Source of the DNA: a virus
Direction: 5' to 3' (one strand)
DNA length: 64,000 bases
IMG/VR virus record: IMGVR_UViG_3300031552_000001
Span: 1 to 64,000 of that record
Shown here: positions 29,784-49,809 of the stretch, in pieces
How the letters are laid out: every line of letters begins with the position of its first letter
Numbering within the stretch: position 1 is the first letter of the stretch
Notes under the pieces: generated by a model
The model's input: only the letters and a program-made list of their open reading frames with translations
The model's database searches: none
Told to the model about the DNA's origin: nothing
Program-made: the position numbers and the translations under genes

Positions 29784-29919
29784 GGGGGTGTAGCCGAATT
29801 GGAATAGGCGCTTTCACAAGGGAGAAAGAAATGCACACCGTTCGGTTACTCGGCCTTCTACCGAAAGCCAACATACACGAACAAACAAGCACATGGAGGT
29901 TCGAATCCTCCCGCCCCCG
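29784..29919 (+). ncRNA. tRNA-like RNA 2 with conserved insert
   Basis: Acceptor GGGGGTG/CGCCCCC, TAGCCGAATTGGAATAGGC, CTTTC-ACAAGGGA-GAAAG, GGAGG-TTCGAAT-CCTCC. Confidence 0.75.
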
Positions 29920-29957
29920 CATTTTACGTAGTTTGCTTTATCAGTAGTAAGAATTAC

Positions 29958-30094
29958 GCCCCTGTAGCCAAAATGGTAAAGGCACTTGAAATTCTAATCA
30001 AGACAAAGACCCCGTTCTGGCACTCAGCTTTTTAAGAAGCTAACCGCAAGGAACAAACAAGCGTATGGAGGTTCGAATCCTTCCAGGGGCGCCA
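29958..30094 (+). ncRNA. tRNA-like RNA 3 with conserved insert and encoded CCA
   Basis: Acceptor GCCCCTG/CAGGGGC then GCCA, TAGCCAAAATGGTAAAGGC, CTTGA-AATTCTAA-TCAAG, GGAGG-TTCGAAT-CCTTC. Confidence 0.78.
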
Positions 30095-30354: not shown

Positions 30355-30434
30355 ATTCTACTTTCGACCTTCTTTAACTCAGACTTTTATCGTGGTAATA
30401 CGTGCCTCAATTTTTCTTTCACATGGAGACCAGC

Positions 30435-32321
30435 ATGGACCAACAGCAAACCCAAACAAGAACAGAAGCACTCGGTCCCGCCGAGAGGGTGATTCAGTCC
30501 CTCCTTCAGTACTCTGACCATATTTACCACGGCCGGCCAGGTTGTGTTCGTAAAAATGAGTCAGAGCCGGCAGGAGTAAAATGGGGGCCTGTTATCTGGA
30601 AAGAGGAGGGCGGAGAAAAGGTTGTATACGAGACTGTAAAAGTAGGAAGGCGGTCTGAGAGGAAAAAAATAGGAGTCCTCAAACCCGACCTCAAAATAAA
30701 AGACGGCCGAAGGGTAATAGGGGAATATAGAAAACCTGGGCTGTACAAAGAGCTAGCGGCGCACTGTTACGAGAAAATAGCTGAAGTATGGAAACTGGAC
30801 AATGAGTTTGCGGCCAGGTGGGCAAGCTGGGCGTTTACCCAAGAACACAGGGACTTAAAGGTGTTGCTTTGCGCTTTTATGCTCGTTCAAAGCCGTAAGG
30901 GAGATCCTGTCATCGAGGATGGAAAAATCCTATTCAAGGATGAGGATTACAGAGATGTCGGCGAGGCTATGTGTCTAACTCGCGCCAAGTTGGATTTAAA
31001 CCCAAAGCTGCTACTGAGAGTAGGCGAAGTGCTGGCTCTCGAAGACATCGCTAAAATCAACCGGAAAATGGGTTTCAATGTATCGGCACGAAAACCTGTA
31101 CTGGGTCGGTATTACAAAGTAGTCACAAAGTGGCTGAAGTACCGAGAAGAGAACATCCCTCTGTTACAAGGGCTAGTAAAAGCAGGATTTAGAACTACTG
31201 TAATGCGGCTTTCCCGAAAAGTCGGTTACAAGCCATCTTCCCCCTCGTTCTTTGAACTCTTGAAGTGGAGGCAAGTTCAGGCCAAAGACGGGCGCAGAAC
31301 TATAGCAATAGGTCAAAAGTTTGAGTCCGAGTCCTGGAAGGGCTTAAAAGAGGAACAAATTTGCGAGATAATCGTTTCAGAAAAACCCAACTGGAAAAGA
31401 TTAGTGGGCATGCTTCCTGTTGAAGTAGGGGTTACTCAAGCTATTGTTACTGCCGCGGTGGAGGCGGGCTGTCTTTCCAATCAGGACTTAATTATCCTTA
31501 CTCCTACCCTTGAGGAGCTAGGGTTACTGAAGGTTCCTGCTGTTCACGATAGGTGGAAGGAGGCAGTTAACAACGCGGAGAACCAAAGAGCTTCCAACAT
31601 TGCGAAAAACGTAAGAACGAAAGAAGCTAAAGACGGGCTGCAGGAGGCTTCTGATAGGGCCGCTGAGAAGGTTTTTAAAGAAGCAACCAAAGATCTAAGA
31701 GTCTACTGTATCGTCGATAAGTCAGGCTCCATGGATGGCGCTCTGGAAAGGGCGCAAGAATACCTCACCCGATTCCTCGGCGGGTTTCCACTAGACAGAC
31801 TTCATGTTTCTGTCTTCACCACAATGGGAACGGAAATACACATTCGTAGTGCAAAAGCTGCCGCAGTTAAACAAGCCTTTGCCGGTCATTCAGCAGGAGG
31901 AGGTACTTGCTACGCTGCAGGTGTGAAGGCTTTAAGTCACCATAAGCCATTAGACAATGAGGACACCTTAATGCTGTTTGTAGGTGATGAAGAAGACTCT
32001 GGGGTGAGCAATTTAGTGAATGAAATTAAAAAGTCGGGTATTCGCCCTTCGGCTTTTGGCCTTTTAAAAGTAGCAGGGTATGGCTTCGCAGGAGGAGGAG
32101 GAAATATAGTAACTCAAGCTGCTCGGCTACTGGACATTCCGTGCTTTCCCATACAAGAGGGTATGTTTACTTCAAACGACCCATATGCGGTCACTCGAAT
32201 TTTGAGGAACCTCATCGCTTCTACTCCAGTAGGTGCGAAAAGTACTCGAGTCTCGTCTAGGAAATCTCTCATAGAGGAGATTCTAGCCACCAAGCTGCTA
32301 AAAAAACCTGTTTGGGCATAG
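30435..32321 (+). CDS. divergent TROVE/Ro60-like helical domain plus C-terminal vWA domain
   Basis: vWA MIDAS IVDKSGSM, GGTCY, FVGDEE; helical N-terminus with TROVE-like DNEFAARWASWA and VMRLSRKVGYKP. Confidence 0.65.
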   Translation: MDQQQTQTRTEALGPAERVIQSLLQYSDHIYHGRPGCVRKNESEPAGVKWGPVIWKEEGGEKVVYETVKVGRRSERKKIGVLKPDLKIKDGRRVIGEYRKPGLYKELAAHCYEKIAEVWKLDNEFAARWASWAFTQEHRDLKVLLCAFMLVQSRKGDPVIEDGKILFKDEDYRDVGEAMCLTRAKLDLNPKLLLRVGEVLALEDIAKINRKMGFNVSARKPVLGRYYKVVTKWLKYREENIPLLQGLVKAGFRTTVMRLSRKVGYKPSSPSFFELLKWRQVQAKDGRRTIAIGQKFESESWKGLKEEQICEIIVSEKPNWKRLVGMLPVEVGVTQAIVTAAVEAGCLSNQDLIILTPTLEELGLLKVPAVHDRWKEAVNNAENQRASNIAKNVRTKEAKDGLQEASDRAAEKVFKEATKDLRVYCIVDKSGSMDGALERAQEYLTRFLGGFPLDRLHVSVFTTMGTEIHIRSAKAAAVKQAFAGHSAGGGTCYAAGVKALSHHKPLDNEDTLMLFVGDEEDSGVSNLVNEIKKSGIRPSAFGLLKVAGYGFAGGGGNIVTQAARLLDIPCFPIQEGMFTSNDPYAVTRILRNLIASTPVGAKSTRVSSRKSLIEEILATKLLKKPVWA

Positions 32322-32369: not shown

Positions 32370-32399
32370 TTCAATTTGACCCTGTGGGAGGGTTCGACA

Positions 32400-33350
32400 A
32401 TGTCGTGGAAAGAGCTGTTGTCAAAGACAAAGCAAGAGGTTTTACCTTGGTTTGGTTTGTCAACAATCCATAATGCCTATCGGTCGTGGACTCTAGTTGG
32501 AGATAGTCCGCTTGAGCATGGGTGGTACAAATTCGATGTTACGGCAGGCCGAGCTGCTACTTTGGCAAGTCCAGAACCCCAACCAGGTAATCTGGAGTGG
32601 GCAGACGGCCAACAGAAGATAAAAGGATATGTTGTAGGGGGTAGATTTATACCCGACGGCCGCCGCGTTATAACAGACCCCTCAAAACTGGTACAACAGA
32701 CACAGCCTCTCTACTGTATAGAACCGGGGCTAGAAAGGTTCGCTAGGGCAACTGCCGTTCTGGACAGGCATACCTACCTAGTTTTCATGCAGCAGGAGTT
32801 TCCGGAGGCTGCCGATGAAGAAGTAACGATAGCCTACCGAGAGCGCAGATCTTCTTTAAAAGGAATTAAAGGAGTAACTCCTGCTCTCGACCTCGCCTTT
32901 AGATGGATGACGCATCAACGGAATGTTGTCGAAGAACGTAGGCGCCAACTCGAGCTCTTACGAGAGGAGGAAGAAAAGAAGATAGCTGAAGCTGAAAGGT
33001 ACCAAAAGCTACTAAAAGAATCCGGAAGCGCCGTAGGCAGAAGAGCGATTGCGGAGCAGGATTTTGAGACTGCGGCAAGGGAGGCGTTGAATATCTCAGG
33101 TGCTACGCTTCTGGACGCTAGACCATCTAAAAACAGAGGGGAAATGGTAGTTCAGTACAGATTCGACCACAGGGGTTTGGAGTGCGTAGTGGACGCAAAA
33201 ACCCTTAGAGTGATTGACGCTGGAATCTGTCTTACTGACGAATACACGGGCGAAAAGGGAGATGCCCGTTTCACTCTTGAGTCTCTACCCGGAGTGGTCC
33301 GGGAAGCCATTCGAGCTGGTTCGCTGGTGGTATGGAGGCATGCAGATTGA
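32400..33350 (+). CDS. hypothetical protein of the vWA/ubiquitin-like cluster
   Basis: GGAGGG SD; central coiled coil; C-terminal DAGICL motif. Confidence 0.7.
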   Translation: MSWKELLSKTKQEVLPWFGLSTIHNAYRSWTLVGDSPLEHGWYKFDVTAGRAATLASPEPQPGNLEWADGQQKIKGYVVGGRFIPDGRRVITDPSKLVQQTQPLYCIEPGLERFARATAVLDRHTYLVFMQQEFPEAADEEVTIAYRERRSSLKGIKGVTPALDLAFRWMTHQRNVVEERRRQLELLREEEEKKIAEAERYQKLLKESGSAVGRRAIAEQDFETAAREALNISGATLLDARPSKNRGEMVVQYRFDHRGLECVVDAKTLRVIDAGICLTDEYTGEKGDARFTLESLPGVVREAIRAGSLVVWRHAD

Positions 33351-34371
33351 GGCAACGACCGTGCTGACAGAGAAAGAAAGAATACTAAAGTCTACAAGGC
33401 CTGAAGAGTTGTTTCCTGGCAACCTAGAAACGGCCAAAGACGAGTACAAGAAGTTAGCCAGAAAGTGGCATCCAGACTTTCAAAACGGAAGCACTTCCGT
33501 AATGTCTCACATAAATAAGCTGTATGACGAGGCAGTACTTCTCATCCAGGCTGGTAAATGGCCAAAGAGGGGCATCTTACGGCTCAATAAAGAGATCGCA
33601 GGGACTATTTCCTTTCGGTTTCTTGCAAGTAGGCCCTTTAGCTTAGGTCACCTATATTTAGGGGAAACTCACCTCTCATATCTTGTAGAAAAAAAGCATT
33701 TACGGTTCGCCGAACGGTCACTTTCTGCGACTGAAAGTTTTCGATATGCCAACCACAAGATGGAGTCAGAGATCTCTAAATACCTGCCTAATAACGTAAC
33801 TCCTTATCTACTAAAAGACAGTCGATGCTTGATAAAAATACCAAAAGTGAAAGAAATGCTATGCCTTAGAGACGTTCTTTCCTTTTACGGAAAACGCCTA
33901 AAGATGGAAGAAGTCGCTTGGATAGGAAGCGGCATGCACAACATTGCATGCTACCTATATTGGGCTGGGATTGTGCATTCCAACTTCTCTTTGGACTCGG
34001 TTTTTATCAACCCATCTACTCATGACGTTGCTCTCCTTGGGGAGTGGTGGTTTGCCTCAAGGCGAGGCGAAAGGCTAAGACACTTGCCTGCTAGAACTGT
34101 GCATTTTCTTCCGTGGGAAGTGCAGGTCCGTAAGGAAGCGACCTACCTCATAGATCTAGAGACCATAAGAGCTACTCTCAGAGAATTAATGGGAGACATC
34201 ACAGGTAAAGACATCGAGTGCAACCCCTTATCGGAATGGGCGCAGACTCCTGCCACTAAAAAGCCCAATAAAGAATACGCTAATTGGCATAGTGCCATCA
34301 AAAAAACCTTCGGGAGACGAAGGTTTGTAAAAATGGCTCTCAATTCGGAAACTTTATATTCGAGTAAGTAG
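33340..34371 (+). CDS. J-domain (HPD) fused to a degenerate protein-kinase-like domain
   Basis: AKDEYKKLARKWHPD; IVHSNFSLDSVFI...VALLGEWWF resembles kinase subdomains VIb-VII without catalytic Asp residues. Confidence 0.7.
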   Translation: MQIEATTVLTEKERILKSTRPEELFPGNLETAKDEYKKLARKWHPDFQNGSTSVMSHINKLYDEAVLLIQAGKWPKRGILRLNKEIAGTISFRFLASRPFSLGHLYLGETHLSYLVEKKHLRFAERSLSATESFRYANHKMESEISKYLPNNVTPYLLKDSRCLIKIPKVKEMLCLRDVLSFYGKRLKMEEVAWIGSGMHNIACYLYWAGIVHSNFSLDSVFINPSTHDVALLGEWWFASRRGERLRHLPARTVHFLPWEVQVRKEATYLIDLETIRATLRELMGDITGKDIECNPLSEWAQTPATKKPNKEYANWHSAIKKTFGRRRFVKMALNSETLYSSK

Positions 34372-34415
34372 TAAACGTCCCCTCTAACAGGAGCAAGGCT
34401 CTAAAGGAAAAGAAC

Positions 34416-35339
34416 ATGGGCGGCGGTCGATTTGATCCTACAGACTGGAATGATTATTCAACCAGCAGAGGCTACGATAAGCCTACTACAAAAGCAGCTG
34501 ACATCTACAAAAGGGGGGATATATTTAAGGACTTTGACCCCAAAAATCTGAAAGACGGAATTAGGGAGTCAAGAGATTCAGAAGACAACCCTAACTCTAC
34601 TCCTATCATTGTGGGGTTGGATGTCACCGGCTCTATGTTTACGGTACTAGAGACCATGGCAAAAAGGGGGTTAAAGACCTTATTTGAGGAAATCTACAGC
34701 AGAAAACCCGTAGAAGACCCTCACGTCCTTTGCGCTGCTATAGGCGACGCGTACTGCGATGGTGCTCCTTTGCAAGTTACTCAGTTCGAGGCAGATTTGA
34801 GAATCGCTGAGCAGCTAGAAAAGCTGTACCTGGAAGGTGGAGGCGGAGGGAATGACTCCGAAGGGTACTCTTTGTTGCACTACTTTGCAGCAAAACACAC
34901 GTCTTGTGACTCTTTCGAGAAGAGGAAGAAAAAGGGGTACCTATTCACTATCGGCGACGACGGCCCCACCCCAAAAGTGATGCCAGAGCACGCAAAAGCA
35001 GTATTCGGGGATGACATTGAGGAGGCGCTTTCTTGCCAGCAGATCCTTACCCTGGCTTCTCGTCAATGGGAGATATTCCATCTGATAGTCCAGGAAGGGG
35101 GCACCGCAGATAGGGCCATGGACGGCAGATGGAAAAAACTACTTGGAGAGCGGGCTTTGGTTTTGAGAGATCATCAAAAGATGGCTGAGGTCATAGTGTC
35201 CACGCTACAAGTAGTCGAGGGCGCCAACCAAGACGCAGTCGTAGACTCGTGGAGCGGAAGCACTGCGATGGTAGTAAAAGACGCAATTCAGAACCTTTCC
35301 AAAAGAGATCAATCCTCTTCTGAAATAGTCACTCTCTGA
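34416..35339 (+). CDS. vWA-domain protein
   Basis: MIDAS-like LDVTGSM, EGGGGGNDSEGY, FTIGDD. Confidence 0.85.
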   Translation: MGGGRFDPTDWNDYSTSRGYDKPTTKAADIYKRGDIFKDFDPKNLKDGIRESRDSEDNPNSTPIIVGLDVTGSMFTVLETMAKRGLKTLFEEIYSRKPVEDPHVLCAAIGDAYCDGAPLQVTQFEADLRIAEQLEKLYLEGGGGGNDSEGYSLLHYFAAKHTSCDSFEKRKKKGYLFTIGDDGPTPKVMPEHAKAVFGDDIEEALSCQQILTLASRQWEIFHLIVQEGGTADRAMDGRWKKLLGERALVLRDHQKMAEVIVSTLQVVEGANQDAVVDSWSGSTAMVVKDAIQNLSKRDQSSSEIVTL

Positions 35340-35373
35340 CTATCTCCCAGATATGAATAATGCAGTAGGGTAA

Positions 35374-35417
35374 CGACATGCGGGAAGTAAGCTGCTTTTC
35401 GCATGTCGCTTCTTTTT
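35374..35417 (+). terminator. intrinsic terminator
   Basis: CGACATGCG...CGCATGTCG followed by CTTCTTTTT. Confidence 0.65.
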
Positions 35418-35449
35418 CGTTGAAACCTATTTCCAAAAGGATGTAGTCA

Positions 35450-36634
35450 ATGAAGCTGACAGCAGTAATAGGGGCAAACTACGGAGATGAAGGAAAAGGC
35501 CGCGTAGTTGACTACTTCTCAAACAAAGGCTCTTTGGTCGTACGGTTTAACGGTGGAGCCCAAGCAGGGCATACTGTAGTCACCAAAGTAGGCCGTAGAC
35601 ATGTTTTTAGGCATTTCGGCTCTGGCACATTCAAAAATGCGCCCACCTATCTTTCTAGGCACTTCATAGTTAACCCCGTACTTTTTCGTCCGGAGTATCA
35701 GCAATTATATGCGTTAGCGTTAGATACAAATGTCGTTGCGCACCCCGAATGTATCGTTACCACGCCCTGGGATATGTTTCTCAATCAGTCCTGTGAGAAG
35801 AGCAAATGCGTCTCTCACAGAGGAAGCTGCGGGTGTGGAATAAACGAGACAGTAGTGAGGAATCAGTCGAAGTTTAAACTCACCCTTAGAGACCTAAGCA
35901 GCCCAAACCTGCCAAGTACGTTATTTTCAATAAAAGACGAGTGGGTTCCGCACAGGGTGTCGGAACTGGGGCTTAGTTACGGAGAACTCTCTTCTTTGAT
36001 AAGAGAACCTGAGTGGGCTTATCGATTCTTGGATGACTGTAGGTTTTTCTTGAAAAAGTGCAGGGTTCTCCCCTTACATGAAGGGGATACCTCTCCTAAC
36101 TTTTCCAGCTTTCCTGATGCAAAACACGTCATCTTTGAAGGTGCTCAGGGTCTACGGTTAGACGAGTTAGGTCGCGATTTTCCTTTTGTTACTAGATCTC
36201 GGACGGGCCTCCCTAACGTATTGGACATTATTAGAAAAGAAGGGTTTAACGACACTCTGGATGTCGTATACGTTACGCGCCCCTATCTCACTCGTCACGG
36301 TGCCGGTCCGCTGAATAACGAACTTACGGCTCCGCCTTACGCAGGAATTACTGAAAGGACTAATGTTTTCAACGCTAATCAAGGCCCCTTTCGATATGCT
36401 TGGTTAGATATAGACGCGCTAGCAAGAACTACTAAAGAAGACCTAAGCCTAGCGACTGACGTAAAAACAAACCCGAAATTTGCTATAACATGTTTGGACC
36501 AAATGCCCCGTACTTTTTCTGTCATAGCGGAGGGTAAATTGGTGATGGTCACTGCCAAAAAATTGGCATCTATGCTTTCGGACCGTACTGGCATAGAAGT
36601 GTGTATGATGACGCCCCCTCCTTCTCCTATCTAA
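35450..36634 (+). CDS. purA: adenylosuccinate synthetase-like protein (PurA-type active site)
   Basis: GANYGDEGKG, RFNGGAQAGHTV, IFEGAQG, TRHGAGP. Confidence 0.88.
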   Translation: MKLTAVIGANYGDEGKGRVVDYFSNKGSLVVRFNGGAQAGHTVVTKVGRRHVFRHFGSGTFKNAPTYLSRHFIVNPVLFRPEYQQLYALALDTNVVAHPECIVTTPWDMFLNQSCEKSKCVSHRGSCGCGINETVVRNQSKFKLTLRDLSSPNLPSTLFSIKDEWVPHRVSELGLSYGELSSLIREPEWAYRFLDDCRFFLKKCRVLPLHEGDTSPNFSSFPDAKHVIFEGAQGLRLDELGRDFPFVTRSRTGLPNVLDIIRKEGFNDTLDVVYVTRPYLTRHGAGPLNNELTAPPYAGITERTNVFNANQGPFRYAWLDIDALARTTKEDLSLATDVKTNPKFAITCLDQMPRTFSVIAEGKLVMVTAKKLASMLSDRTGIEVCMMTPPPSPI

Positions 36635-36751
36635 AAATAACCCGACACTCGGCCTTCAGCGCAGGCATTTTCATCTAGAACAGTCGGGTTCAATTAGTCT
36701 ATTTTGGCGCTGTGCCGCAGATTGGTAGTCATTCTAAAAAAGAGGTTTATC

Positions 36752-38743
36752 ATGAAACAGGTTACTTGGGTTTTTCTGTGTTTGAGCATCGTGTCGTGTT
36801 CGAGCGGCACGCTGTTCGTTCCTTTAGAGTCAAATCCGTGTGACTCGTGTGAAGAAGGAGAGGTTTGCAGCCAAGGCGAATGCATTTCTCCAATTGATTG
36901 TGAAGAGTTAGGGGGTGTTGTGGTCAAGGGGGGCGGCGCATGCCAGCTATGCGGCGACTTTGAGGTGGTGGGTACAGAAGAGTGCGATGATGGGGAAGAA
37001 ACCGAATTTTGCAACTCAGACTGCACTTTTACTGAGTGCGGGGACGCCATAGTGAACTTTGCCTCAGGAGAAGAGTGCGATGATGGAGAAAATAATGGCA
37101 GGTATCAAGGATGCACAAAAGAGTGCACAATTTCTCCTTACTGTGGAGGAGACAGTGCCGCGGTAGCTTGTGACGATCACGACGCATGTACAGTTGATGC
37201 TTGCAGTTACGACGGATGCACAAACACCTTCTCGTCTGACTTATGTCACCACCTTGCGTTCGACGTGGCGCCTATGAAGACAGTGTTCGTAGGTATGACC
37301 TGGCCGACGTTTTCTGTGCGAGTGGAGAATTCTCTGGGCTACCCGGTAAACATTTCCTCTCCTGTTACCTTAGTCTTATCAGGGGCGCTCAACAGAACCA
37401 TCGAAGCTACCCTCGTAGAAGGAGGTGCTTACTTCTCGACTCTTGCAGCATTCAAGATTGGAGCTGTAAGCATAGAAGCTAGCGTGCCTCTTATAGGCTC
37501 CACGTCAAGAACTGTTGCAGTTATTGACCCCTCTCCAGAGTGCAAGCTGGACGATGATTGCGATTTGGGTTTTGTGTGTAATGAGAATTGGGGAATTTGC
37601 GCGCTTCCTAACTGCAAATCTCAACCGGACTTCACTCCCTGTGAAGTAATAACAGACCCCGACCGCTCCTACGATATTTGCTTGGGGGGTAAATGCGAAT
37701 CTCCTGGCTGTGGAGAAGGTAACTGTAATTCTCCGGGGCCCAATTTCAAGATACCGGATACAGGAGCGGTGCTTTGTTATGGAGAGGATTCAGAAATTCC
37801 CTGCCCTAGTGAAGAAGAGGCCTATTATCTACAAGATGCTCAACAGGGGTGGGATTTTACCCATTCTGCGCCAGAAAGGTTCTCGATAGATGTGTCGTCT
37901 GGAAATAAAGTGATAACAGATACTATCACTAATTTGATGTGGGAAGGCTGCACTCAAGGTTATGACAACTGCTCTGACCTAGGTGGGGTTTGCGGTCCTA
38001 TGTGCGACTGGAGTGAATCTATAGCTTATTGTGATTCTTTAATGTGGGGAGGGTACACAGATTGGAGGTTGCCTAATTCCCAGGAACTTCTGTCTATTAT
38101 CGACTACCGCCATCTCACTCCGGCGCTAGACAAAGAAGTGTTCGACGACTTAGGTGTATACCCTGGCGCGATGTATTGGACATCTGACAGCTCTCTATAC
38201 GAAAAATCTATGGGGCTCACAGTAGATTTTCGAGATGGGGAGACGTCAGTTCAAGATAAAAGCCACGAAATTCCTACTCGTTGCGTAAGAGGGCGCCCTC
38301 ATCTCATAAACTACAATAGGTTTGAAAAAACAGAAGGAGCGTATCCCACGGTTTTAGATACTACTACGGGGCTGATGTGGCAGGGTTGTTTAGCTAGCTC
38401 TAATTCCGTCTGTAACCCTAATTACACCTCCAAATATCGATGGGATGGAGCTTTGTTCTATTGCGAAAATTTAGAATGGGGAGGCTATAGTGATTGGCGG
38501 CTCCCTAATGTAAAAGAAACACACAGTTTGATAAATCACAGAGAGCGTTCGAGAGTCGACTCCACTATGTTTCCTATGGTGTCCAATCAGTCCCTAATTT
38601 GGACATCTACGCCATCTCCAAAAATTAGTGGAGGATCGTCTACAAAAAAAGAGGCATGGAGGGCGCTTTTCGGCTCTTACGACAGTATAAGTTCTGGCAG
38701 CAAGGAAGAGATGCTTGAAGTCATGTGCGTAAGAGACCCATAA
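36752..38743 (+). CDS. Cys-rich putative lipoprotein with DUF4215-like repeats and two Lcl/DUF1566 domains
   Basis: Lipobox-like LSIVSC; CGD...EECDDG repeats; TNLMWE...YTDWRLPNSQEL and TGLMWQ...YSDWRLPNVKE. Confidence 0.8.
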   Translation: MKQVTWVFLCLSIVSCSSGTLFVPLESNPCDSCEEGEVCSQGECISPIDCEELGGVVVKGGGACQLCGDFEVVGTEECDDGEETEFCNSDCTFTECGDAIVNFASGEECDDGENNGRYQGCTKECTISPYCGGDSAAVACDDHDACTVDACSYDGCTNTFSSDLCHHLAFDVAPMKTVFVGMTWPTFSVRVENSLGYPVNISSPVTLVLSGALNRTIEATLVEGGAYFSTLAAFKIGAVSIEASVPLIGSTSRTVAVIDPSPECKLDDDCDLGFVCNENWGICALPNCKSQPDFTPCEVITDPDRSYDICLGGKCESPGCGEGNCNSPGPNFKIPDTGAVLCYGEDSEIPCPSEEEAYYLQDAQQGWDFTHSAPERFSIDVSSGNKVITDTITNLMWEGCTQGYDNCSDLGGVCGPMCDWSESIAYCDSLMWGGYTDWRLPNSQELLSIIDYRHLTPALDKEVFDDLGVYPGAMYWTSDSSLYEKSMGLTVDFRDGETSVQDKSHEIPTRCVRGRPHLINYNRFEKTEGAYPTVLDTTTGLMWQGCLASSNSVCNPNYTSKYRWDGALFYCENLEWGGYSDWRLPNVKETHSLINHRERSRVDSTMFPMVSNQSLIWTSTPSPKISGGSSTKKEAWRALFGSYDSISSGSKEEMLEVMCVRDP

Positions 38744-38847: not shown

Positions 38848-39096
38848 ATGAGAAAAACACCAAAAGACACCCCAGGCCTTAAAGCTTGCGGGTGTAAAAA
38901 TTCGAACGTGTTAACTTGTTATGTTTATGATGCTAGCTTTACTGGTGTCCGAGAGCATTACGTACAGTGTCAGTCTTGCGGAAGTGGAACAAGAGTGACT
39001 TCCACTAAAGCTGAAGCTCAGCGCTTATGGAATATTAGACAGCTACAATGGATAAACCCAAAGAAATGGCGTTTTAAAGAGGGTAAAGAATGCTAG
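38848..39096 (+). CDS. Lar-like (restriction alleviation) zinc-finger protein
   Basis: CGC...YVQCQSCGSGT...AEAQRLWN. Confidence 0.6.
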   Translation: MRKTPKDTPGLKACGCKNSNVLTCYVYDASFTGVREHYVQCQSCGSGTRVTSTKAEAQRLWNIRQLQWINPKKWRFKEGKEC

Positions 39097-39485
39097 AAGC
39101 GGCTGCTGTGTTTGATTTAAACTTCAACGAGTTTTATGGACATTATCCTGACGGAAGAACCGACTCTTGGATACCTGACTCTCGATCTTTGTGGGAATTT
39201 ATTTGGGAGCACCGAGTAGAAGTAGGGGGAGTCGCCCACACGCATCCGTGGGATGGGGAGGCTTATCCGTCACAAACAGACATAACCACGTTCGCTGCCA
39301 TAGAAACAGGGCTCGGTAAAAGACTTCTGTGGCCAATTATTACTATGACAGAAACTAGATGTTTCTCATTCAACAAACTAATGCGAGAGTACACAGATAC
39401 TTTGTTTCTCATTAACATTCCGCAGCATACAGAGGCATTACGTATTCTTGCGGAAAACCTGCGACAAAAGTCGCTAGGAGGATAA
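39090..39485 (+). CDS. JAB/MPN+ (Mov34) metallopeptidase
   Basis: JAMM motif AHTHP...YPSQTD. Confidence 0.85.
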   Translation: MLEAAAVFDLNFNEFYGHYPDGRTDSWIPDSRSLWEFIWEHRVEVGGVAHTHPWDGEAYPSQTDITTFAAIETGLGKRLLWPIITMTETRCFSFNKLMREYTDTLFLINIPQHTEALRILAENLRQKSLGG

Positions 39486-39486
39486 C

Positions 39487-39774
39487 ATGGGTGGAATGGA
39501 TTTGGTACCGATTGTAACCGAGTTGTCTTCAGCAAGGCTCACTGTTACCTATAAAGGAGAACAGGGGGACCTGCCGGACAGCGTAGAGTATGACACGCCC
39601 GACGATGTCATAAAACAAATAGCGAAAGAGTCCATTCGTGGCGGGTATGTGCCAGGGATTTCAGCAGACCCGGACGCGGAGTTTGATGACTTTGTAGTGG
39701 ATAGATTTTCTGCTAGAGAGGGCGCTCCTATACCTCGGATCAGCCTCAGGCCGAAAACTCCGTTCGGCAGTTAG
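39487..39774 (+). CDS. ubiquitin-like (beta-grasp) protein candidate
   Basis: 95 aa, directly after JAB, ends ...SLRPKTPFGS. Confidence 0.55.
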   Translation: MGGMDLVPIVTELSSARLTVTYKGEQGDLPDSVEYDTPDDVIKQIAKESIRGGYVPGISADPDAEFDDFVVDRFSAREGAPIPRISLRPKTPFGS

Positions 39775-39807
39775 TATCTTCTCAAAAGTAAAACACAAGG
39801 AGAATCT

Positions 39808-40125
39808 ATGGCCGGATTCTTATTGTTATTCAAACGGTTGTTTAGAAAGCCGCACCCTCTCTTAGACTATTACCATTGCGACAGAGCAAAAAAGCGTATG
39901 GATGACTACGAAAAGCTTAGAGCTAAAAGAGTGTTGCCCTCATCTTCCGTATCTACTGTAGCCCTGTCTCAGTACACGCAGCAGGCAGCGAATATCGTAG
40001 AAAGAGAAGGTAAGGAGTACGCTCCGAGTCTGGAAAACGAGGTGCGCTTGCTGTCACTGCTAGTTAGAGAGCTGTTGGGCGAGGTTATATACCTTCACGA
40101 CCACTTAAACCGCCATGTCAGATAA
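39808..40125 (+). CDS. hypothetical protein
   Basis: AAGGAG SD. Confidence 0.5.
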   Translation: MAGFLLLFKRLFRKPHPLLDYYHCDRAKKRMDDYEKLRAKRVLPSSSVSTVALSQYTQQAANIVEREGKEYAPSLENEVRLLSLLVRELLGEVIYLHDHLNRHVR

Positions 40126-40432
40126 AAAATGCTCCCACACTTGGGAGCTACAACTTAGATTCTCTAGTCCTCCCGGTAAAGGCTCCATACAACGCTTTCG
40201 ATGCGCCTTGTGTGGAGCTTGGGGGTACAATAATCCTCCATACCGAATGGTCATCGCTTCGTATAAAGGCCCTATCTTAAATCCTCCACAACACTGGGAT
40301 CGAGAGTCTTTCTCCGATCCTAGTCTGTCAATGCAGGATATCGAAGTTACAGAGTATACAACTGCTAGAGAACTTGAACGAGACAAACCTATAGGGTGGT
40401 CTCTCCCGGATAAATGGAGTGAGCCTAAATGA
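40115..40432 (+). CDS. small zinc-binding protein
   Basis: CSHTW...FRCALCGAWG. Confidence 0.5.
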   Translation: MSDKKCSHTWELQLRFSSPPGKGSIQRFRCALCGAWGYNNPPYRMVIASYKGPILNPPQHWDRESFSDPSLSMQDIEVTEYTTARELERDKPIGWSLPDKWSEPK

Positions 40433-40662
40433 AACATAGCCAGACTGCCTCCTACAACAACCTTTCCGGCAAAGTAATTCATGTCGGCGTAGGGATTCAT
40501 GCCGTTGTAAAGGAATTTTGCAGGGAACGTAACTTACACATGAGAAACTTTACAGAAGAGGCTCTAGATAGAGCTATGTTTGTGACAAAAGAAGAAGAAA
40601 GTTACGAAACTGAGCATAGAAAGAACAAAAATGAAGAAAAGACATCTGTCTCTGCCGATTGA
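40429..40662 (+). CDS. ribbon-helix-helix-like regulator
   Basis: KVIHVGVGIHAVVKEFCRERNLHMRNFTEEAL. Confidence 0.5.
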   Translation: MKHSQTASYNNLSGKVIHVGVGIHAVVKEFCRERNLHMRNFTEEALDRAMFVTKEEESYETEHRKNKNEEKTSVSAD

Positions 40663-41452
40663 GTGCGGAGAAAAAACTTGTGCTTCTCAAAAAGGAAAGT
40701 TCTGCGAGTTTTTGTATGTAGAGAGATTTGGTACAACCCCCTTCTGCAAATTGTTTTCTGAACAGTTAAGAATAAAGGGGCATGTTCCCTTGGAAGAGGT
40801 AGACGGGTGGTTGCAGCGTCATCCAAGGTGTCTCGAGCTCGAAAGCAAGTTAGAGGCCCTGCCTTTAGAAAACTTCTCGGATAAAAATATCCGACTTTTC
40901 GGAAACGAGTTGTCTCTTACAGGGGCCTTATTCTCGAGTAATGAGGAAGGGTACATCTGCTTATTTCCTACTCAAAAAGCGCCACCTAACATAGCAGTCA
41001 TGCCATTAGATATTGAGGAGTGGAAACACCTTCTCAAGCAATTAGACACTCAAGAGGTGGAAGTAATTCAAACCGCTTCAGATGGAACGGTTACCAAAGC
41101 AATTTTGAGAAAAAGTCAGAGACTTATCGAACAGAGGGTCTCCTGGAGTGTATTTCGACGAGACAGCTACCGTTGCAGGTATTGTGGCGCCACTGGGGTT
41201 CCGCTGACCGTAGACCATTTAGTTCTATGGGAAGAAGGGGGGCCCAGCACAGAAGATAACCTCCTTACTGCCTGCCGCCCCTGCAATAAGACTAGAGGTA
41301 ACTTGCCATATGAAGAATGGCTTAAACACCCTTACTACCTTGAGAAAGCACGCAACGGCCTCTCGAGAGGACAGCAATGCGCCTTAGCGGCTATTGTGCC
41401 TCGCCTAAAAGACATTGAGCGTAGAGTGTCCAAACGTTCAACAAGAAAATGA
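40631..41452 (+). CDS. HNH endonuclease-domain protein (McrA-like)
   Basis: VFRRDSYRCRYCG...LTVDHLV...GG...NLLTACRPCNKTRG. Confidence 0.88.
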   Translation: MKKRHLSLPIECGEKTCASQKGKFCEFLYVERFGTTPFCKLFSEQLRIKGHVPLEEVDGWLQRHPRCLELESKLEALPLENFSDKNIRLFGNELSLTGALFSSNEEGYICLFPTQKAPPNIAVMPLDIEEWKHLLKQLDTQEVEVIQTASDGTVTKAILRKSQRLIEQRVSWSVFRRDSYRCRYCGATGVPLTVDHLVLWEEGGPSTEDNLLTACRPCNKTRGNLPYEEWLKHPYYLEKARNGLSRGQQCALAAIVPRLKDIERRVSKRSTRK

Positions 41453-41464
41453 CAGGAGATTTTT

Positions 41465-42040
41465 ATGATAGTCATTGTTGGATTAGGCGCTTTGGGCTCT
41501 CACTTGGCTTTAGTTTTAAGGAACCACAAAGAGGGGCTACATCTAATTGATTTCGATAGAGTGGACTCTCATAACACTCAAGCTCAGTTCCACGGTGTAA
41601 GAGATATTCGACTCAAAAAATCGGAGTCTTTGAAGAAGAATCTATTTGGGCTATTTGGCTCAAAAGTACTGGCTACCCCCCATAGAGTAGAAGAAACCAA
41701 CGCAGAGACACTGCTTTCTTCCAACGAGGTCGTAGCAGATTGTACAGACAACTACGTTGCTCGGCAGCTCATACAAAAAGTATGTACCAAACTGCCCGTG
41801 CCATGCCTACACGGAGCTCTTTCAGGTGATGGGCTGTTTAGCCGAGTAGTGTGGGATGAGCACTTTACAGAAGCGGACAGGGAGGACGAAGAGGGCGGTG
41901 CTACTTGCGAGAATGGAGAAAGGCTACCATTCTTCTCTTTCGTCAGCTCTTTTATGGGAGGGGAAATACAGCACTTTCTGAAAACTGGCCAGAAGAGGAG
42001 TTTTCAGCTTACCTCTTCTTCAGTTCTTCGACTTGCTTAG
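41465..42040 (+). CDS. ThiF/MoeB/E1-like adenylyltransferase
   Basis: VGLGALGS, IDFDRV..HN, KK, DCTDN. Confidence 0.9.
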   Translation: MIVIVGLGALGSHLALVLRNHKEGLHLIDFDRVDSHNTQAQFHGVRDIRLKKSESLKKNLFGLFGSKVLATPHRVEETNAETLLSSNEVVADCTDNYVARQLIQKVCTKLPVPCLHGALSGDGLFSRVVWDEHFTEADREDEEGGATCENGERLPFFSFVSSFMGGEIQHFLKTGQKRSFQLTSSSVLRLA

Positions 42041-42044
42041 CTTA

Positions 42045-42073
42045 GAAGAGAGTGAGTATTTCTCACTCTCTTC
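42045..42073. terminator. bidirectional terminator between convergent blocks
   Basis: GAAGAGAGTGAG-TATTT-CTCACTCTCTTC. Confidence 0.75.
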
Positions 42074-46133: not shown

Positions 46134-49100
46134 TTAGATTATTAGGGTCAGCCTCAAATAGTTCGCAGGGAAGGGAACGTCGATCGTGACGTCCACCAGA
46201 ATAGTGTCAGGAGCGCTAGCATCTTGAATCAAATTATTGACGTCTGCGCCAATAAGAACCCCTGACTCAATAAGAAAGTTAAGCTGCCCCTGCACAACCG
46301 TCGATAAACTATCCAGAAACCCTTGTGTGATATTAGAGCGGCCTATGAAGTTGCGAAGACCTGCCCGCATAAACTTTGCGGTAAAGTCCACGACCTTAGT
46401 AATCGACAGCTCCCTGGTTTCAATCGATGAGTTGTCAGTAGACAGTTGGTGTCTGCAAATAACAGGCGCCCCTACCGCATCCCGTACCAGAATATAAACC
46501 CCGCCTGCGGCGATGATATTAAGATGCGTATTGGTAAACTTATCGTTTGAGCCAATAGGGCGCGTTAATCCGGTAATGGGGAAGTTAGTAAATCCCTGCT
46601 GTGGAGGCTGCTGCCCTACCATGCCCACAATACAAGCCGTGGCATAGTAACCGCTTACAGACTGCTCCAATCCAGTGACGTTAATTGCCACTTGATCTGG
46701 GAACACATAATAGCCTCGACGGAAGCCATAAGCCTGAGCAGATTCTTGAATCGTAGAGGCAATAGCTGCCCTGTCTGGGCGGGTAGTACCAGAAAGAAGT
46801 AGTTGCTCGCCCCTAATAAAGACGCTCCAATCATCACTGATGACTGTAGTGGGGAACGCATCGCTGCTGTAGAAGGAATCCTCGTTTCCATCCCCAGCAG
46901 CAAACGTAGTACGAAGAGTGAGAGTAGTTCCGGCAGTGACCTTCTGGACAAGGTAATACTTATCGTCGTCTCCGATATCTAAGTACACCTCGTTATCGAT
47001 TTCGCCCGTAGTGGGGTTAATATCGAGATTGGGGTCAATTCCAGCGGCAATAAGAGCCGGAGCGAGGTTGACATCGACAGTGCACTCATTCGCGGTGGCT
47101 GTAGTATTGAGGTCCGTACCAGATCCTACAATCTCAGGATTTGCCCTATCCGGCATAGGAGGATTAAAGAAGTAAATCCTTTCCCCCTTCTGCTCAGGCT
47201 CCGACATCGCGTTAACATGCGTCAAAAACGCCTGATGCACCGTGCTGAGCTGAGAAGCAGTAGCTAGCGCATATACTTCCTCATTCTCCAAAAAGTCTGC
47301 GCATCGAGCGTACCCTGCGGGGGTGCCGTCAGGAGCATCAGCGGAAACCTCCGGCACACCAATTGCGGCCACAGAAGTAGCTGTTGCGTTTAACAACGCC
47401 AAGTAAGCCATAAGTGCGCCGGGGTTATCAGTGCTTATAGGGTCAGCGGCCTCTTCAAGCGTAGAGATGTCGTCGATAGTCAAAAGAGCCGGATTATCAG
47501 CATCCGGACTCAAATCTAGACGAAGACCCTTATACGCAATGACTATCGGAGCAAACCCTGGGTTGAACGGGGTTCCGGTCAGCCCATCCCGAAGTATCTG
47601 GCTTTGAACAACTGCATTTCCAGAAATGTCTATAGCCAAGTCTGGTGCGGGCCTGCCATCTCCAACTGTAGAACTGGATCCCGTAAAGCCAAGAATGGTA
47701 TTGGCAGTCCCGGCGCCAATAAGTATCTTCGACGCTTCTCCAACCTTTACGCTGGTCAGCTTCAATGCGGGGGGACTAGAGCTGCTAGCTGCCGCAATAT
47801 TCGGAGTGAGTTCATTGATTCTATCCACAATAGAATCAAGAGAAGTTCCGTTGTCGTCCTCATCCTTCTGAAGCGTAACACTCCAAACTTTCGGATTACT
47901 GTCTAGCGACCACTCAAACGTTTTACCGTTCAAATCGGCATCAGTACCCGTAACCGGGCTGCCGTCAACAGCAAAAAGAGTGTCTGTTCCACCTGTAACT
48001 TGAACGCTAGCGGTGCTACCGACGTTCTCGTTCCTGGTACGGAACGCCAGGTAAGTACCAGCCGCGTCCTCCACGCCGGTAACAAGCGCGGTATACGCCT
48101 CAGTATAGACTGCCTGGGAATTCCAGTCCGCGACCGCAGCAGCTATTGTTGCATGAGCCGCCGCCCAAGTAATTGTTTCCGAACTTTTAGCGACTCCCAG
48201 ATAAGTAGGAGTGTAGATTACCGTTTGACCTGACGTTCTGGCCGTAAAGGCAGCGGAGGCCACCTTTATTGCAGGCAAGCCCGGGCGGTACCGTATATTC
48301 TCACCGACGTCTGAAAGAGGAAGAGAAGTAAAGCCTAAATCCGAAGCTACAGTCGAGGCGGCAACTGTTATAGCGGCATCACTTCCAGTATTAGCCGCAA
48401 GAGTTCTGAACCCAAGATGCGTAGCTACGGCAGCGTCAACTTCGTCCCCGACATCATTGGAGGCGTACGTTTCAAAATTCGTAGCCTGCGCGTTAATTTG
48501 AGCTATAGCGTAGGCTAACGTACTCCAAGAGTCAGCTCCAACTCCCGTACCCGAGCTGACCGTTTCAGTAGATTGAGCCACGCCGCTCACGGTTACGTCT
48601 ACCGAGATACTTTCACTCGGAGACGACGTACCAGAAAAAGCGCTTTGAGGCACCACGTACGGCCTGCTGGCTGCTACAGCGGCTACGGTGCCTGTGACAG
48701 TCGCGGCCGCGCTGGCACTCGGAGCAGGATATACGAGGTTGTTGGCTTCTATCCATACTCTTCGAGGGGCAAACTTAGCCCCCTGGGATATAATGTTTTG
48801 CTCTACTTCCATTGTTAGTAGAGCGCTTTCCACTGTAGCCACTTGGCCTATAGCAATTCCATCGGCGATTAAATCATCGCCTACTGCAATACTGTCACTC
48901 AAGAAGTTTGGAGCAGTAATGTAGGCCGTACCGAGAGAAGACACCGTCCCCTGCTGGTTTCCAACATATACCGCAAGCCGGGGGCTAGTGTAATCTCCGT
49001 CACTATCGTCTACGGCGTAAAAGCCTGAACCCACCGCGATAGTATCATCTGCGGCACTGAAGCCCAACCTTGTAGCTCCCACATTGGCAGAGCCTTCTTT

Positions 49101-49766
49101 TCTTACAACAACAGAGGCTCCAGCACCGTAGTTCGTAGAGGTAAGAACAAGAACCCCTGTTCCTCCTGTTGCGGACCTAGAAGCCAAGCCGGGAACCAAA
49201 GCATTGATTTGGTCGATTACCTCGTCAAGAGTTAGGACACCCCCCGGCGTAGAAGCAGCGAAAGTTACCGTGATGTTACCCGACGTAGGTAAGGTGCCGG
49301 ACGTGGGAGGCAGTGCAGTGTGCCCATCAAGCAACAGGATAAGGGTTCTACCGTCTAGGTCGTAACCACCTCCTGTACCTGTTTCAGTAGAAGTCCCCTC
49401 TACGTACGGCTGCAAAGAAACGGTAGGGTCAAGGTAGCTTTTAAGAAATGCAGACTCTCTTGATAGCTCCCTGAGCTCTCCTCCAAATTCAAAGAATACG
49501 CGCACCGTATCCTCTAGCACGTCCACTTCATCAATGTTATCTCGAGGAGAAGGGAAAGACGACTGGAGGACGGTCTGCTCAAGTTGCTCATATAAAGAGC
49601 TTATCTTGGCATCACTATTTACCGTGCCGTCACTTTGAAGCGCTTCGATAACTTCAAAGAATGGGGCTATTACGCAAGGAACTAGCGTAGGAGTAACTAT
49701 AGTGGGAGACGTGGATGCGAACTCTTGCACCACTTCGACCCCGGGTCGGGGGAGTTCAGTAGCCAT
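46134..49766 (-). CDS. contractile tail sheath protein (very large)
   Basis: C-terminal sheath motifs TRELSITKVVDF...FIGR...DTILVDVTIDVPFPANYLRLTL. Confidence 0.85.
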   Translation of the reverse strand: MATELPRPGVEVVQEFASTSPTIVTPTLVPCVIAPFFEVIEALQSDGTVNSDAKISSLYEQLEQTVLQSSFPSPRDNIDEVDVLEDTVRVFFEFGGELRELSRESAFLKSYLDPTVSLQPYVEGTSTETGTGGGYDLDGRTLILLLDGHTALPPTSGTLPTSGNITVTFAASTPGGVLTLDEVIDQINALVPGLASRSATGGTGVLVLTSTNYGAGASVVVRKEGSANVGATRLGFSAADDTIAVGSGFYAVDDSDGDYTSPRLAVYVGNQQGTVSSLGTAYITAPNFLSDSIAVGDDLIADGIAIGQVATVESALLTMEVEQNIISQGAKFAPRRVWIEANNLVYPAPSASAAATVTGTVAAVAASRPYVVPQSAFSGTSSPSESISVDVTVSGVAQSTETVSSGTGVGADSWSTLAYAIAQINAQATNFETYASNDVGDEVDAAVATHLGFRTLAANTGSDAAITVAASTVASDLGFTSLPLSDVGENIRYRPGLPAIKVASAAFTARTSGQTVIYTPTYLGVAKSSETITWAAAHATIAAAVADWNSQAVYTEAYTALVTGVEDAAGTYLAFRTRNENVGSTASVQVTGGTDTLFAVDGSPVTGTDADLNGKTFEWSLDSNPKVWSVTLQKDEDDNGTSLDSIVDRINELTPNIAAASSSSPPALKLTSVKVGEASKILIGAGTANTILGFTGSSSTVGDGRPAPDLAIDISGNAVVQSQILRDGLTGTPFNPGFAPIVIAYKGLRLDLSPDADNPALLTIDDISTLEEAADPISTDNPGALMAYLALLNATATSVAAIGVPEVSADAPDGTPAGYARCADFLENEEVYALATASQLSTVHQAFLTHVNAMSEPEQKGERIYFFNPPMPDRANPEIVGSGTDLNTTATANECTVDVNLAPALIAAGIDPNLDINPTTGEIDNEVYLDIGDDDKYYLVQKVTAGTTLTLRTTFAAGDGNEDSFYSSDAFPTTVISDDWSVFIRGEQLLLSGTTRPDRAAIASTIQESAQAYGFRRGYYVFPDQVAINVTGLEQSVSGYYATACIVGMVGQQPPQQGFTNFPITGLTRPIGSNDKFTNTHLNIIAAGGVYILVRDAVGAPVICRHQLSTDNSSIETRELSITKVVDFTAKFMRAGLRNFIGRSNITQGFLDSLSTVVQGQLNFLIESGVLIGADVNNLIQDASAPDTILVDVTIDVPFPANYLRLTLII

Positions 49767-49809
49767 TTTTAACACCTTTCAACAAGTCGCAGTGTTCTGT
49801 AGCCATAAT

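Follow-up and report, generated by a model that had tools for sequence, protein, structure and literature searches.

A conserved phage cassette predicted to process, activate, and conjugate a new ubiquitin-like protein

Prokaryotes were recently shown to use conjugation of ubiquitin-like proteins (Ubls) in defense, with CBASS Cap2/Cap3, Bil, and Bub as host systems that attack phage (PMC10097602; 10.1101/2023.09.26.559546). Do phages use such chemistry themselves? The 64,000 nucleotides analyzed here, called the window (the whole stretch, at its full length), are the first 64 kb of a phage genome, the 192,137-bp IMG/VR record IMGVR_UViG_3300031552_000001, which is rated complete by CheckV. The window carries a cassette of five genes, among them those for a predicted Ubl, a JAB peptidase, and an E1-like enzyme. 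The cassette is probably a module, of a new family, with which the phage processes, activates, and conjugates the Ubl. If this is true, a widespread phage-side Ubl-E1-JAB set would mean that bacterial viruses use Ubl chemistry, as eukaryotic viruses exploit ubiquitin. Full-text literature searches found no description of the cassette. Iyer et al. 2021 described ROT/TROVE proteins in some jumbo phages and did not mention JAB, E1, or Ubl, and a preprint on Asgard viruses recorded one virus that has both ThiF genes and a Ro60 gene, and drew no link between them.

Described systems that resemble the cassette

The bacterial anti-phage operon BilABCD encodes a Ubl (BilA), an E2 (BilB), a JAB protease (BilC), and an E1 (BilD). 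Type II BilA has a universally conserved Gly followed by nonconserved residues; BilC cleaves after that Gly in vitro and also removes BilA from its conjugates, as shown experimentally (10.1101/2023.09.26.559546). The phage cassette resembles Bil in its Ubl with a Gly and a tail, its dedicated JAB, and its dedicated E1, all in one operon. There are five differences. (i) Bil is found in bacterial defense islands, while the cassette is found on phages. (ii) The Bil E1 is composed of an inactive adenylation domain, an active adenylation domain, and a CYS domain, exceeding 400 amino acids (aa) in total, while the phage E1 is a single MoeB-like domain of ~190 aa. (iii) The cassette has no recognizable UBC-fold E2. 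(iv) The vWA protein and the 324-aa protein are additional, obligatory partners. (v) The phage Ubl forms a family of its own that Pfam does not match; it ends in FG and carries tails of up to about 170 aa.

The archaeal SAMPs and the Thermus protein TtuB end in GG and also serve in molybdenum cofactor synthesis and tRNA thiolation, for which the acceptor enzymes are present. The SAMP/UbaA/HvJAMM1 and TtuB/TtuC systems (PMC4443979; PMC4895103), which serve both in sulfur transfer and in conjugation, have neither E2 nor E3. Like the cassette, they combine a MoeB-type E1 of one domain, with a cysteine in a loop, with a JAMM protease and a small modifier of the beta-grasp type. The cassette differs in that its Ubl ends in FG, its genome has no rhodanese or PP-loop thiolase, and it is viral and linked to a vWA gene. 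In the systems of ThiS/MoaD sulfur carriers (the PdtF/G/H and QbsC/D/E siderophore operons and CysO/Mec+), a JAB enzyme trims the C terminus of a beta-grasp carrier and a ThiF/MoeB-type E1 then adenylates it (PMC1779556).

Two further systems are instructive. The vWA-MoxR-FtsH ternary conflict systems are predicted to link a vWA protein with a set of JAB, E1, and Ubl (Kaur et al. 2020, PMC7159879). They are bacterial and include the AAA+ ATPases MoxR and FtsH, a RING-type E3, a Ubl-E2 fusion, and effector domains, none of which occurs in the phage cassette. Phage lambda encodes a JAB and Ubl pair in which the Ubl, TAPI, has a C-terminal Gly and the JAB, TAPK, is fused to NlpC/P60 (PMC1779556). 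The lambda pair has no E1 and lies in the tail module beside the tip protein J; the cassette, by contrast, includes an E1 and a free-standing JAB and has nonstructural genes as neighbors.

A five-gene cassette and its conservation

The cassette consists of the following genes.

30402..32321, plus strand: cassette gene 1, a 639-aa protein with a C-terminal vWA domain (Pfam VWA_2)
32376..33350, plus strand: cassette gene 2, a 324-aa protein of no recognized family (in 61/61 loci; model of predicted local distance difference test score [pLDDT] 92)
39090..39485, plus strand: cassette gene 3, a JAB/JAMM metallopeptidase of 131 aa that is predicted to process the Ubl and may also act as a deconjugase (PF14464)
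39487..39774, plus strand: cassette gene 4, a 95-aa predicted beta-grasp Ubl precursor with the motif LRPKTPFG(94) and a 1-residue tail, Ser95 (model, alignment)
41465..42040, plus strand: cassette gene 5, a minimal 191-aa ThiF/MoeB-type E1 with the loop residue Cys148 (PF00899)

A check of the open reading frames (ORFs) placed the JAB, Ubl, and E1 genes on the plus strand exactly where an earlier, sequence-only reading of this DNA had located them. That reading had proposed that the three form a set embedded with a vWA module, and it had flagged an ORF at 32400-33350 as an unassigned candidate. How general is this arrangement? A scan of IMG/VR with the Ubl alignment found 48 loci, mostly on contigs of 110 to 618 kb, and a scan of one genome per prokaryotic species found 11, all of them on contigs of metagenome-assembled genomes (MAGs); with the uncultured Virus Rctr197k and the window itself, the total is 61. 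Two weak loci from a viral scan with the single Ubl sequence (L003 and L004; 33% identity over 53 residues) were discarded, as they lack the cassette. The order vWA, 324-aa protein, JAB, Ubl, E1 is fixed in the 59 scanned loci and in Rctr197k (tblastn with the window proteins). When every ORF of at least 70 aa in the 61 loci was clustered all against all, the 324-aa protein and Ubl families were each present in 61/61 loci, JAB in 60/61, the vWA protein in 58/61, and E1 in 57/61. Two of the loci without an E1 (L018 and L032) end just after the Ubl gene, while two (L036 and L048) continue beyond it and still have none. Within 8 kb to either side, the five genes are the only conserved families apart from an HNH endonuclease; the only other recurrent clusters were antisense shadows of the cassette genes. 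The pattern is far beyond chance; the same gene order recurs in 61 loci whose cassette proteins are only 40 to 60% identical. Spacing is tight as well, often under 100 bp between genes (e.g., L021, L027, L052, L058, and L063). That JAB, Ubl, and E1 make up one conserved functional unit is supported, and so is their connection to the two upstream genes, which are core cassette members found in 58 to 61 of the 61 loci.

Of 50,697 GenBank phage records, only that of Rctr197k carries the cassette (tblastn), and blastn of the region against GenBank phages returned no match. The analysis came across no cultured phage that has it. The E1 had matches in Rctr197k and, more distantly, in one other record, an uncultured 595-kb phage (LR756511.1, 280760-281194) whose mini-E1 relative is 34% identical over 148 residues; LR756511.1 had no match to the Ubl or the vWA protein at the thresholds used. 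The 11 MAG loci (L053 to L063, on contigs of 4 to 155 kb) were binned as Myxococcota (four or five bins, including Sorangium), “Deltaproteobacteria,” Gemmatimonadota, Schekmanbacteria, and others. They may reflect host range or misbinned phage contigs, and PHROG scans of the genes flanking the cassette on five of the MAG contigs left phage versus host origin undecided.

The Ubl has no sequence family in Pfam, NCBIfam, PHROGs, PADLOC, or PDB. From an alignment of 15 sequences, AlphaFold produced a model with a pLDDT of 84 and the element order beta-beta-alpha-beta-beta. Its top Foldseek and VIA matches are nearly all beta-grasp proteins, namely SUMO/Smt3, the UBLs of hPLIC2 and parkin, ISG15, Fubi, PB1, and staphylokinase, with the BilA-BilC entry 8tyx also present, and the Atlas's own model of the protein leads to PB1 and related matches. 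Foldseek against PDB gave no match at an E value of ≤0.001 for the models of either this protein or the 324-aa protein. The match scores are weak, and a beta-grasp fold is predicted with moderate confidence.

The C terminus of the Ubl is its most telling feature. The gene ends CCG TTC GGC AGT TAG, i.e., PFGS and a stop codon, and it had been proposed that trimming a single residue would expose a C-terminal Gly. Among the first 15 homologues, LRPKTPFG is invariant, the residues past the Gly vary, and one homologue ends exactly at the Gly. In 43 viral loci, the tail is absent in 3, one residue long in 22, and at most 61 residues long, and the residue after the Gly is essentially random; the orthologue in Rctr197k, annotated as a 166-aa protein, extends 61 residues past its PFG. 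When 1.84 billion representative proteins were searched with a profile (E ≤0.001), the family grew to 323 clusters at 50% identity. In an alignment of 205 members, 203 retain Gly94 and there is no conservation at position 95, with tails of 0 aa in 17 sequences, 1 aa in 64, 2 to 19 aa in 59, and at least 20 aa in 63, the longest being about 170 aa. Just upstream, R88, P89, and K90 are 93 to 97% conserved and recall the basic tail of ubiquitin, which ubiquitin's E1 reads. Just before the Gly, 176 of the 205 sequences have F, 18 have Y, and 10 have L or V; none has G. These alignments support a predicted precursor in which the conserved Gly is followed by a disposable tail, in keeping with the proposed trimming, and the pattern is the one shown experimentally for BilA (10.1101/2023.09.26.559546).

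Several Ubl precursors (L015, from 8211 onward; P0071 and P0161; L001, 7920-8420) have a similar tail of ~45 residues (roughly ...LGC.L....G...ITTPEG..WD.T.P), and it therefore appears that fusion of one small domain behind the Gly at the predicted cleavage site has happened more than once. CxxC...CxxC motifs are present in other tails, resembling zinc ribbons, and in P0161 a zinc ribbon is inserted within the beta-grasp domain.

The predicted protease is encoded immediately upstream. Its match to Pfam Prok-JAB (PF14464; E value of 4.6e-6) is above the curated cut-off, and the JAMM motif E...HxH...SxxD corresponds to E3, H50, H52, S61, and D64, each invariant or at least 90% conserved in 42 to 44 homologues, so the original identification of a JAMM peptidase stands. 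The family profile aligns this motif with that of Rpn11, though weakly (E value of 0.4). The protein is free-standing, with no NlpC/P60 partner domain. Because the JAB stop codon is 1 nucleotide before the Ubl ATG and an AGGAGG is 6 nucleotides before that ATG, the two genes appear to be translationally coupled. Of the 60 loci with a JAB gene, 59 have it directly upstream of the Ubl gene. Is trimming its only role? In three loci (L026, L029, and L034) the Ubl already stops exactly at the Gly and JAB is present nonetheless, which suggests a role beyond trimming, probably deconjugation.

Only two exceptions were found to the order or content involving JAB: L059 (8001-8536) has the Ubl gene first and JAB directly downstream, and L061 has the four other cassette genes and no JAB match. 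In the window, an ORF for an 82-aa Cys-rich protein (38848-39096, plus strand) overlaps the JAB start by 7 nucleotides; it is absent from related loci and has a subthreshold match to Lar-type restriction-alleviation zinc ribbons (E value of 2e-4).

The E1-like enzyme matches ThiF (PF00899) with an E value of 3.3e-21. Its best relative of solved structure is Escherichia coli MoeB (1jw9; E value of 3.5e-16), with which it aligns over MoeB residues 33 to 212. Invariant residues include the loop G6xG8ALG11S12, R19, D29, Q41, K52, D92, C93, D95, R100, and C148. The last of these lies in the sequence GATCE, is invariant in 40 sequences, and aligns with the ALTC(187) loop of MoeB; a stand-alone E1-like enzyme with a late Cys is just what had been read from the sequence. 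All 45 orthologues are single-domain proteins of 189 to 207 aa with no fused rhodanese, UFD, or CYS domain, and none has the BilD-type architecture of inactive and active adenylation domains with an inserted CYS domain. The CYRC zinc motif of MoeB aligns with a Cys-free stretch and the phage protein stops before the second CxxC; with C93 and C148 as its only invariant cysteines, it has no MoeB/ThiF-type zinc site, which consists of two CxxC pairs. By these alignments, the E1 is predicted to be a stripped-down, MoeB-like adenylation domain. Family members are much shorter than MoeB (249 aa) or ThiF (251 aa), as they start at the strand of the GxGxxG and end soon after the Cys loop. The invariant R19-N20 following the glycine loop might stand in for the missing N-terminal helix that bears an arginine.

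What is the 324-aa protein, present in every locus? It has no family in Pfam, NCBIfam, PHROGs, PADLOC, or PDB sequence searches. Its model has a beta-rich N-terminal half of tandem OB-like folds, a helix of ~50 residues, and a C-terminal alpha/beta domain made of helices, a four-stranded sheet, a loop, and a helix. Of its two invariant cysteines, C270 and C285 (GICL), the latter is in the loop after the sheet. VIA matched the N-terminal half to the double-OB inter-domain of the proteasomal ATPase Mpa (Z of 5.5). For the C-terminal domain, VIA gave weak matches to the Ctf19-Mcm21 RWD (Z of 4.4), the Fanconi core complex (FANCL; 3.9), and the Tsg101 UEV (3.8), which stand among unrelated folds of equal score, and the Atlas search returned only DsbC_N and YbjN-like proteins at a TM score of about 0.5 and no E2. 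The absence of a recognizable E2, noted at the outset, extends across the 192-kb genome for the families tested; there is no Pfam UQ_con match, a weak negative in that the UQ_con search was blank in control genomes too. The 324-aa protein could be a carrier, an acceptor, or an adaptor; it is an obligatory partner and has a cysteine that might plausibly be catalytic, but it is not demonstrably an E2.

The second partner, the 639-aa protein, has a C-terminal Pfam VWA_2 domain, as do all the members of its family that were tested (34/34; best E value of 2e-10), while its N-terminal ~420 aa have no assigned domain. The wider family comprises at least 1,719 clusters at 90% identity, annotated with vWA only, and a PDB sequence search returned only vWA proteins. 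The Ubl set had been described as embedded in a Ro60-like/vWA module. The vWA part holds, with cassette linkage in 58/61 loci; the Ro60-like part is unconfirmed, as Pfam TROVE (PF05731) was not detected in the genome (even at an E value of 10), in the 34 family members, or in precomputed Pfam annotation of 120 homologues. Just upstream of this gene are two Rfam tRNA matches (29784-29919 and 29958-30091, plus strand; 36 and 47 bits). At 134 to 136 nucleotides they are about twice the normal tRNA length, and ARAGORN finds no tRNA in the window. Rctr197k has six annotated tRNAs at the same position upstream of its orthologous vWA gene (L001, 366-996).

A putative conjugation pathway and its rivals

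How might the cassette work? We infer the steps below, from cleavage through adenylation and thioester formation to conjugation, as well as the targets and the benefit to the phage, from the observed gene content, catalytic residues, predicted fold class, conserved Gly with its variable tail, and cassette linkage. The 95-aa precursor would be cut after Gly94 by the JAB/JAMM zinc peptidase encoded upstream, removing one Ser here and up to about 170 residues in relatives. The minimal MoeB-type E1, presumably a homodimer, would bind ATP-Mg and adenylate the exposed Gly94 carboxylate, and Cys148, in the loop equivalent to that of MoeB Cys187, would probably take over the Ubl as a thioester. From there, the Ubl would pass to a target lysine, with no intermediate carrier, as in the archaeal SAMP/UbaA system, which has no E2, or else via Cys285 of the 324-aa protein. 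The vWA protein, always linked, would be a likely target or a recruiter of substrates, and the JAB enzyme may also reverse the conjugates. A bolder version, possible but rather doubtful, is a complete tagging pathway of these uncultured jumbo phages, in which a new Ubl family is served by the smallest known E1 (~190 aa), the 324-aa protein is a non-UBC analogue of an E2, and the vWA protein, possibly an RNA-binding, Ro-like ring with tRNA-like RNAs, acts as the selector or as the tagged platform. It would be the first Ubl conjugation system of a bacterial virus and would be coupled to a ribonucleoprotein.

Several points count against a conjugation module. (i) The fold scores of the 95-aa protein are weak (E values of ≥0.1 in Foldseek and a best Z of 5.0 in VIA), and the beta-grasp assignment was made because of topology and the consistency of the hits. 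(ii) The E1 is missing ~30 N-terminal and ~40 C-terminal residues of MoeB, and its competence is assumed. (iii) In sequence, it is nearest to enzymes of sulfur carriers, MoeB, ThiF, and Uba4. (iv) There is no recognizable E2 or E3 among the families tested. (v) Sulfur-carrier pathways, too, include beta-grasp proteins whose tails are trimmed by a JAB enzyme, in operons of the PdtF/G/H type (Iyer et al. 2006, PMC1779556).

Could the Ubl then be a sulfur carrier? In such a scheme, JAB would trim the precursor, the E1 would adenylate Gly94, a host persulfide donor would convert it to a thiocarboxylate, and the sulfur would go to an RNA base or a small molecule. The kinship of the E1 with MoeB, ThiF, and Uba4 fits, as do the operons of JAB, ThiS/MoaD-like protein, and E1 known for thio-siderophores and sulfur assimilation (PMC1779556), and host enzymes could supply the sulfur. 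In one variant, the target could be the tRNA-like RNAs encoded upstream at 29784-30091, with the OB-fold, two-cysteine 324-aa protein as the transfer platform; its OB-like N-terminal domain is weakly similar to RNA-binding OB/CSD proteins, and both of its cysteines are invariant. Other evidence points away from sulfur. The absence of sulfur-relay genes claimed in the sequence-only reading was upheld across the complete 192-kb genome for the families tested, with no match to rhodanese or to PP-loop enzymes (ATP_bind_3; TtuA/NcsA/TilS type). No gene beyond the five of the cassette is conserved in the 61 loci, with the proviso that MoaE, ThiG, and a desulfurase were not searched for individually. 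The E1 has neither a fused rhodanese domain nor a zinc site, the C terminus is FG and never the GG of ThiS, MoaD, Urm1, and TtuB, and the tails of 20 to 170 aa, many of which have zinc ribbon-like motifs of their own, are closer to ubiquitin fusion precursors than to the short extensions of carriers. Because there is no rhodanese, no PP-loop thiolase, and no zinc site in the E1, a sulfur-carrier role is less likely, and overall it appears unlikely.

A noncovalent role is distinctly improbable. Here, the beta-grasp protein would be an adaptor or chaperone of the vWA protein, for example by binding its MIDAS; JAB would release fused partners, as proposed for lambda TAPI/TAPK; and the E1 would act elsewhere, for example on RNA like TcdA. 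One of the fold matches of the Ubl is a complex of a UBL domain with a MIDAS domain (8ql1; Z of 4.6), and TcdA-type tRNA dehydratases are among the PDB matches of the E1 profile (E value of 2e-10), yet MoeB far outscores TcdA. Tail assembly provides examples of phage JAB and Ubl pairs that lack an E1 (PMC1779556), but the E1 accompanies the Ubl in 57/61 loci, the cassette is outside the tail module, and its JAB has no NlpC/P60. A near-invariant terminal Gly after the basic residues R88 and K90 is, moreover, what adenylation by an E1 requires. A TAPI/TAPK-type role in tail assembly was considered separately and rejected in view of the free-standing JAB, the presence of the E1, and the site outside the tail module.

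Finally, the cassette might serve counterdefense, with the phage Ubl, E1, and JAB jamming or reversing host Bil, Bub, or type II CBASS (JAB stripping host conjugates, or the Ubl acting as a decoy for the host E1 and E2). In its favor are the established host systems and the weak matches of the E1 in PADLOC, all of them distant and to CBASS E1-E2 models only. This reading is highly doubtful, as the three proteins are only distant from Bil and Cap proteins (in PADLOC, JAB has an E value of 0.005 and the Ubl no match) and a simple antidefense gene needs no cassette of five, with its own E1, vWA protein, and cysteine proteins, in fixed order in 61 loci. A relationship to CBASS Cap2/Cap3 was considered and rejected.

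If the conjugation module is the right reading, what does it offer? Its E1, at ~190 aa, is a minimal one for mechanistic work, and the new Ubl family comes with a natural set of predicted cleavable C-terminal fusions. From the two obligatory partners it may be learned how a system that lacks a canonical E2 or E3 selects its targets. And should the vWA partner be an RNA-binding, Ro-like protein, Ubl tagging would be linked to RNA surveillance in a virus.

Insertions and genome setting

In the window, the cassette is broken twice, by insertions at 33214-38743 and 39808-41452. The features involved, and one that follows the E1 gene, are these.

33214..38743, plus strand: a four-gene block (J-domain protein, vWA protein, PurA-like enzyme, and Cys-rich Lcl_C protein) that separates genes 1 and 2 from genes 3 to 5
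39808..40662, plus strand: three small ORFs, of 105, 105, and 77 aa, that separate the Ubl gene from the HNH and E1 genes, with no family match
40631..41452, plus strand: a 273-aa HNH endonuclease, probably a mobile, homing-type gene (PF01844; E value of 2.4e-11)
42045..42073, plus strand: a terminator-like hairpin with a 12-bp stem followed by a T run, 5 nucleotides after the E1 stop codon (consensus scan only)

None of the four genes in the first insertion has a homologue in related loci, making the split unique to this phage. The J-domain match of the first (33214-34371, plus strand) is weak, and the second (34416-35339, plus strand) encodes another vWA-type protein, one with no Pfam match at an E value of 0.01. 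That a second vWA gene sits beside a vWA-linked cassette may not be a coincidence.

The second insertion accounts for the spacing of 1.7 kb between the Ubl and E1 genes that had been remarked on in the sequence. The spacing is real here, but it is not a trait of the cassette: in many relatives the E1 gene begins 20 to 300 bp after the Ubl gene, and the gap is a local insertion of the three small ORFs, for which no homologue was found in the 60 related loci, and the HNH gene. The HNH cluster occurs in 26/61 loci, with close orthologues at differing positions in about 14; some lie between gene 2 and JAB, others between the Ubl and E1 genes. Orthologues that are 42 to 54% identical lie at L018 6961-7539, L019 6999-7574, L006 8422-9003, and L045 9060-9602. 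The gene looks like a mobile one of the homing type because its intergenic site varies between phages, and it is probably a free-standing homing endonuclease aimed at the conserved cassette.

The source phage has a contractile tail, as indicated by a tail-sheath-like gene (46134-49775) and a major-head-like gene (58631-59758), both on the minus strand. The cassette is on the opposite strand and outside the tail module, at the end of a plus-strand block of nonstructural genes (thymidylate kinase, helicase, and PurA-like enzyme). The predicted hairpin at 42045..42073 marks the end of that block.

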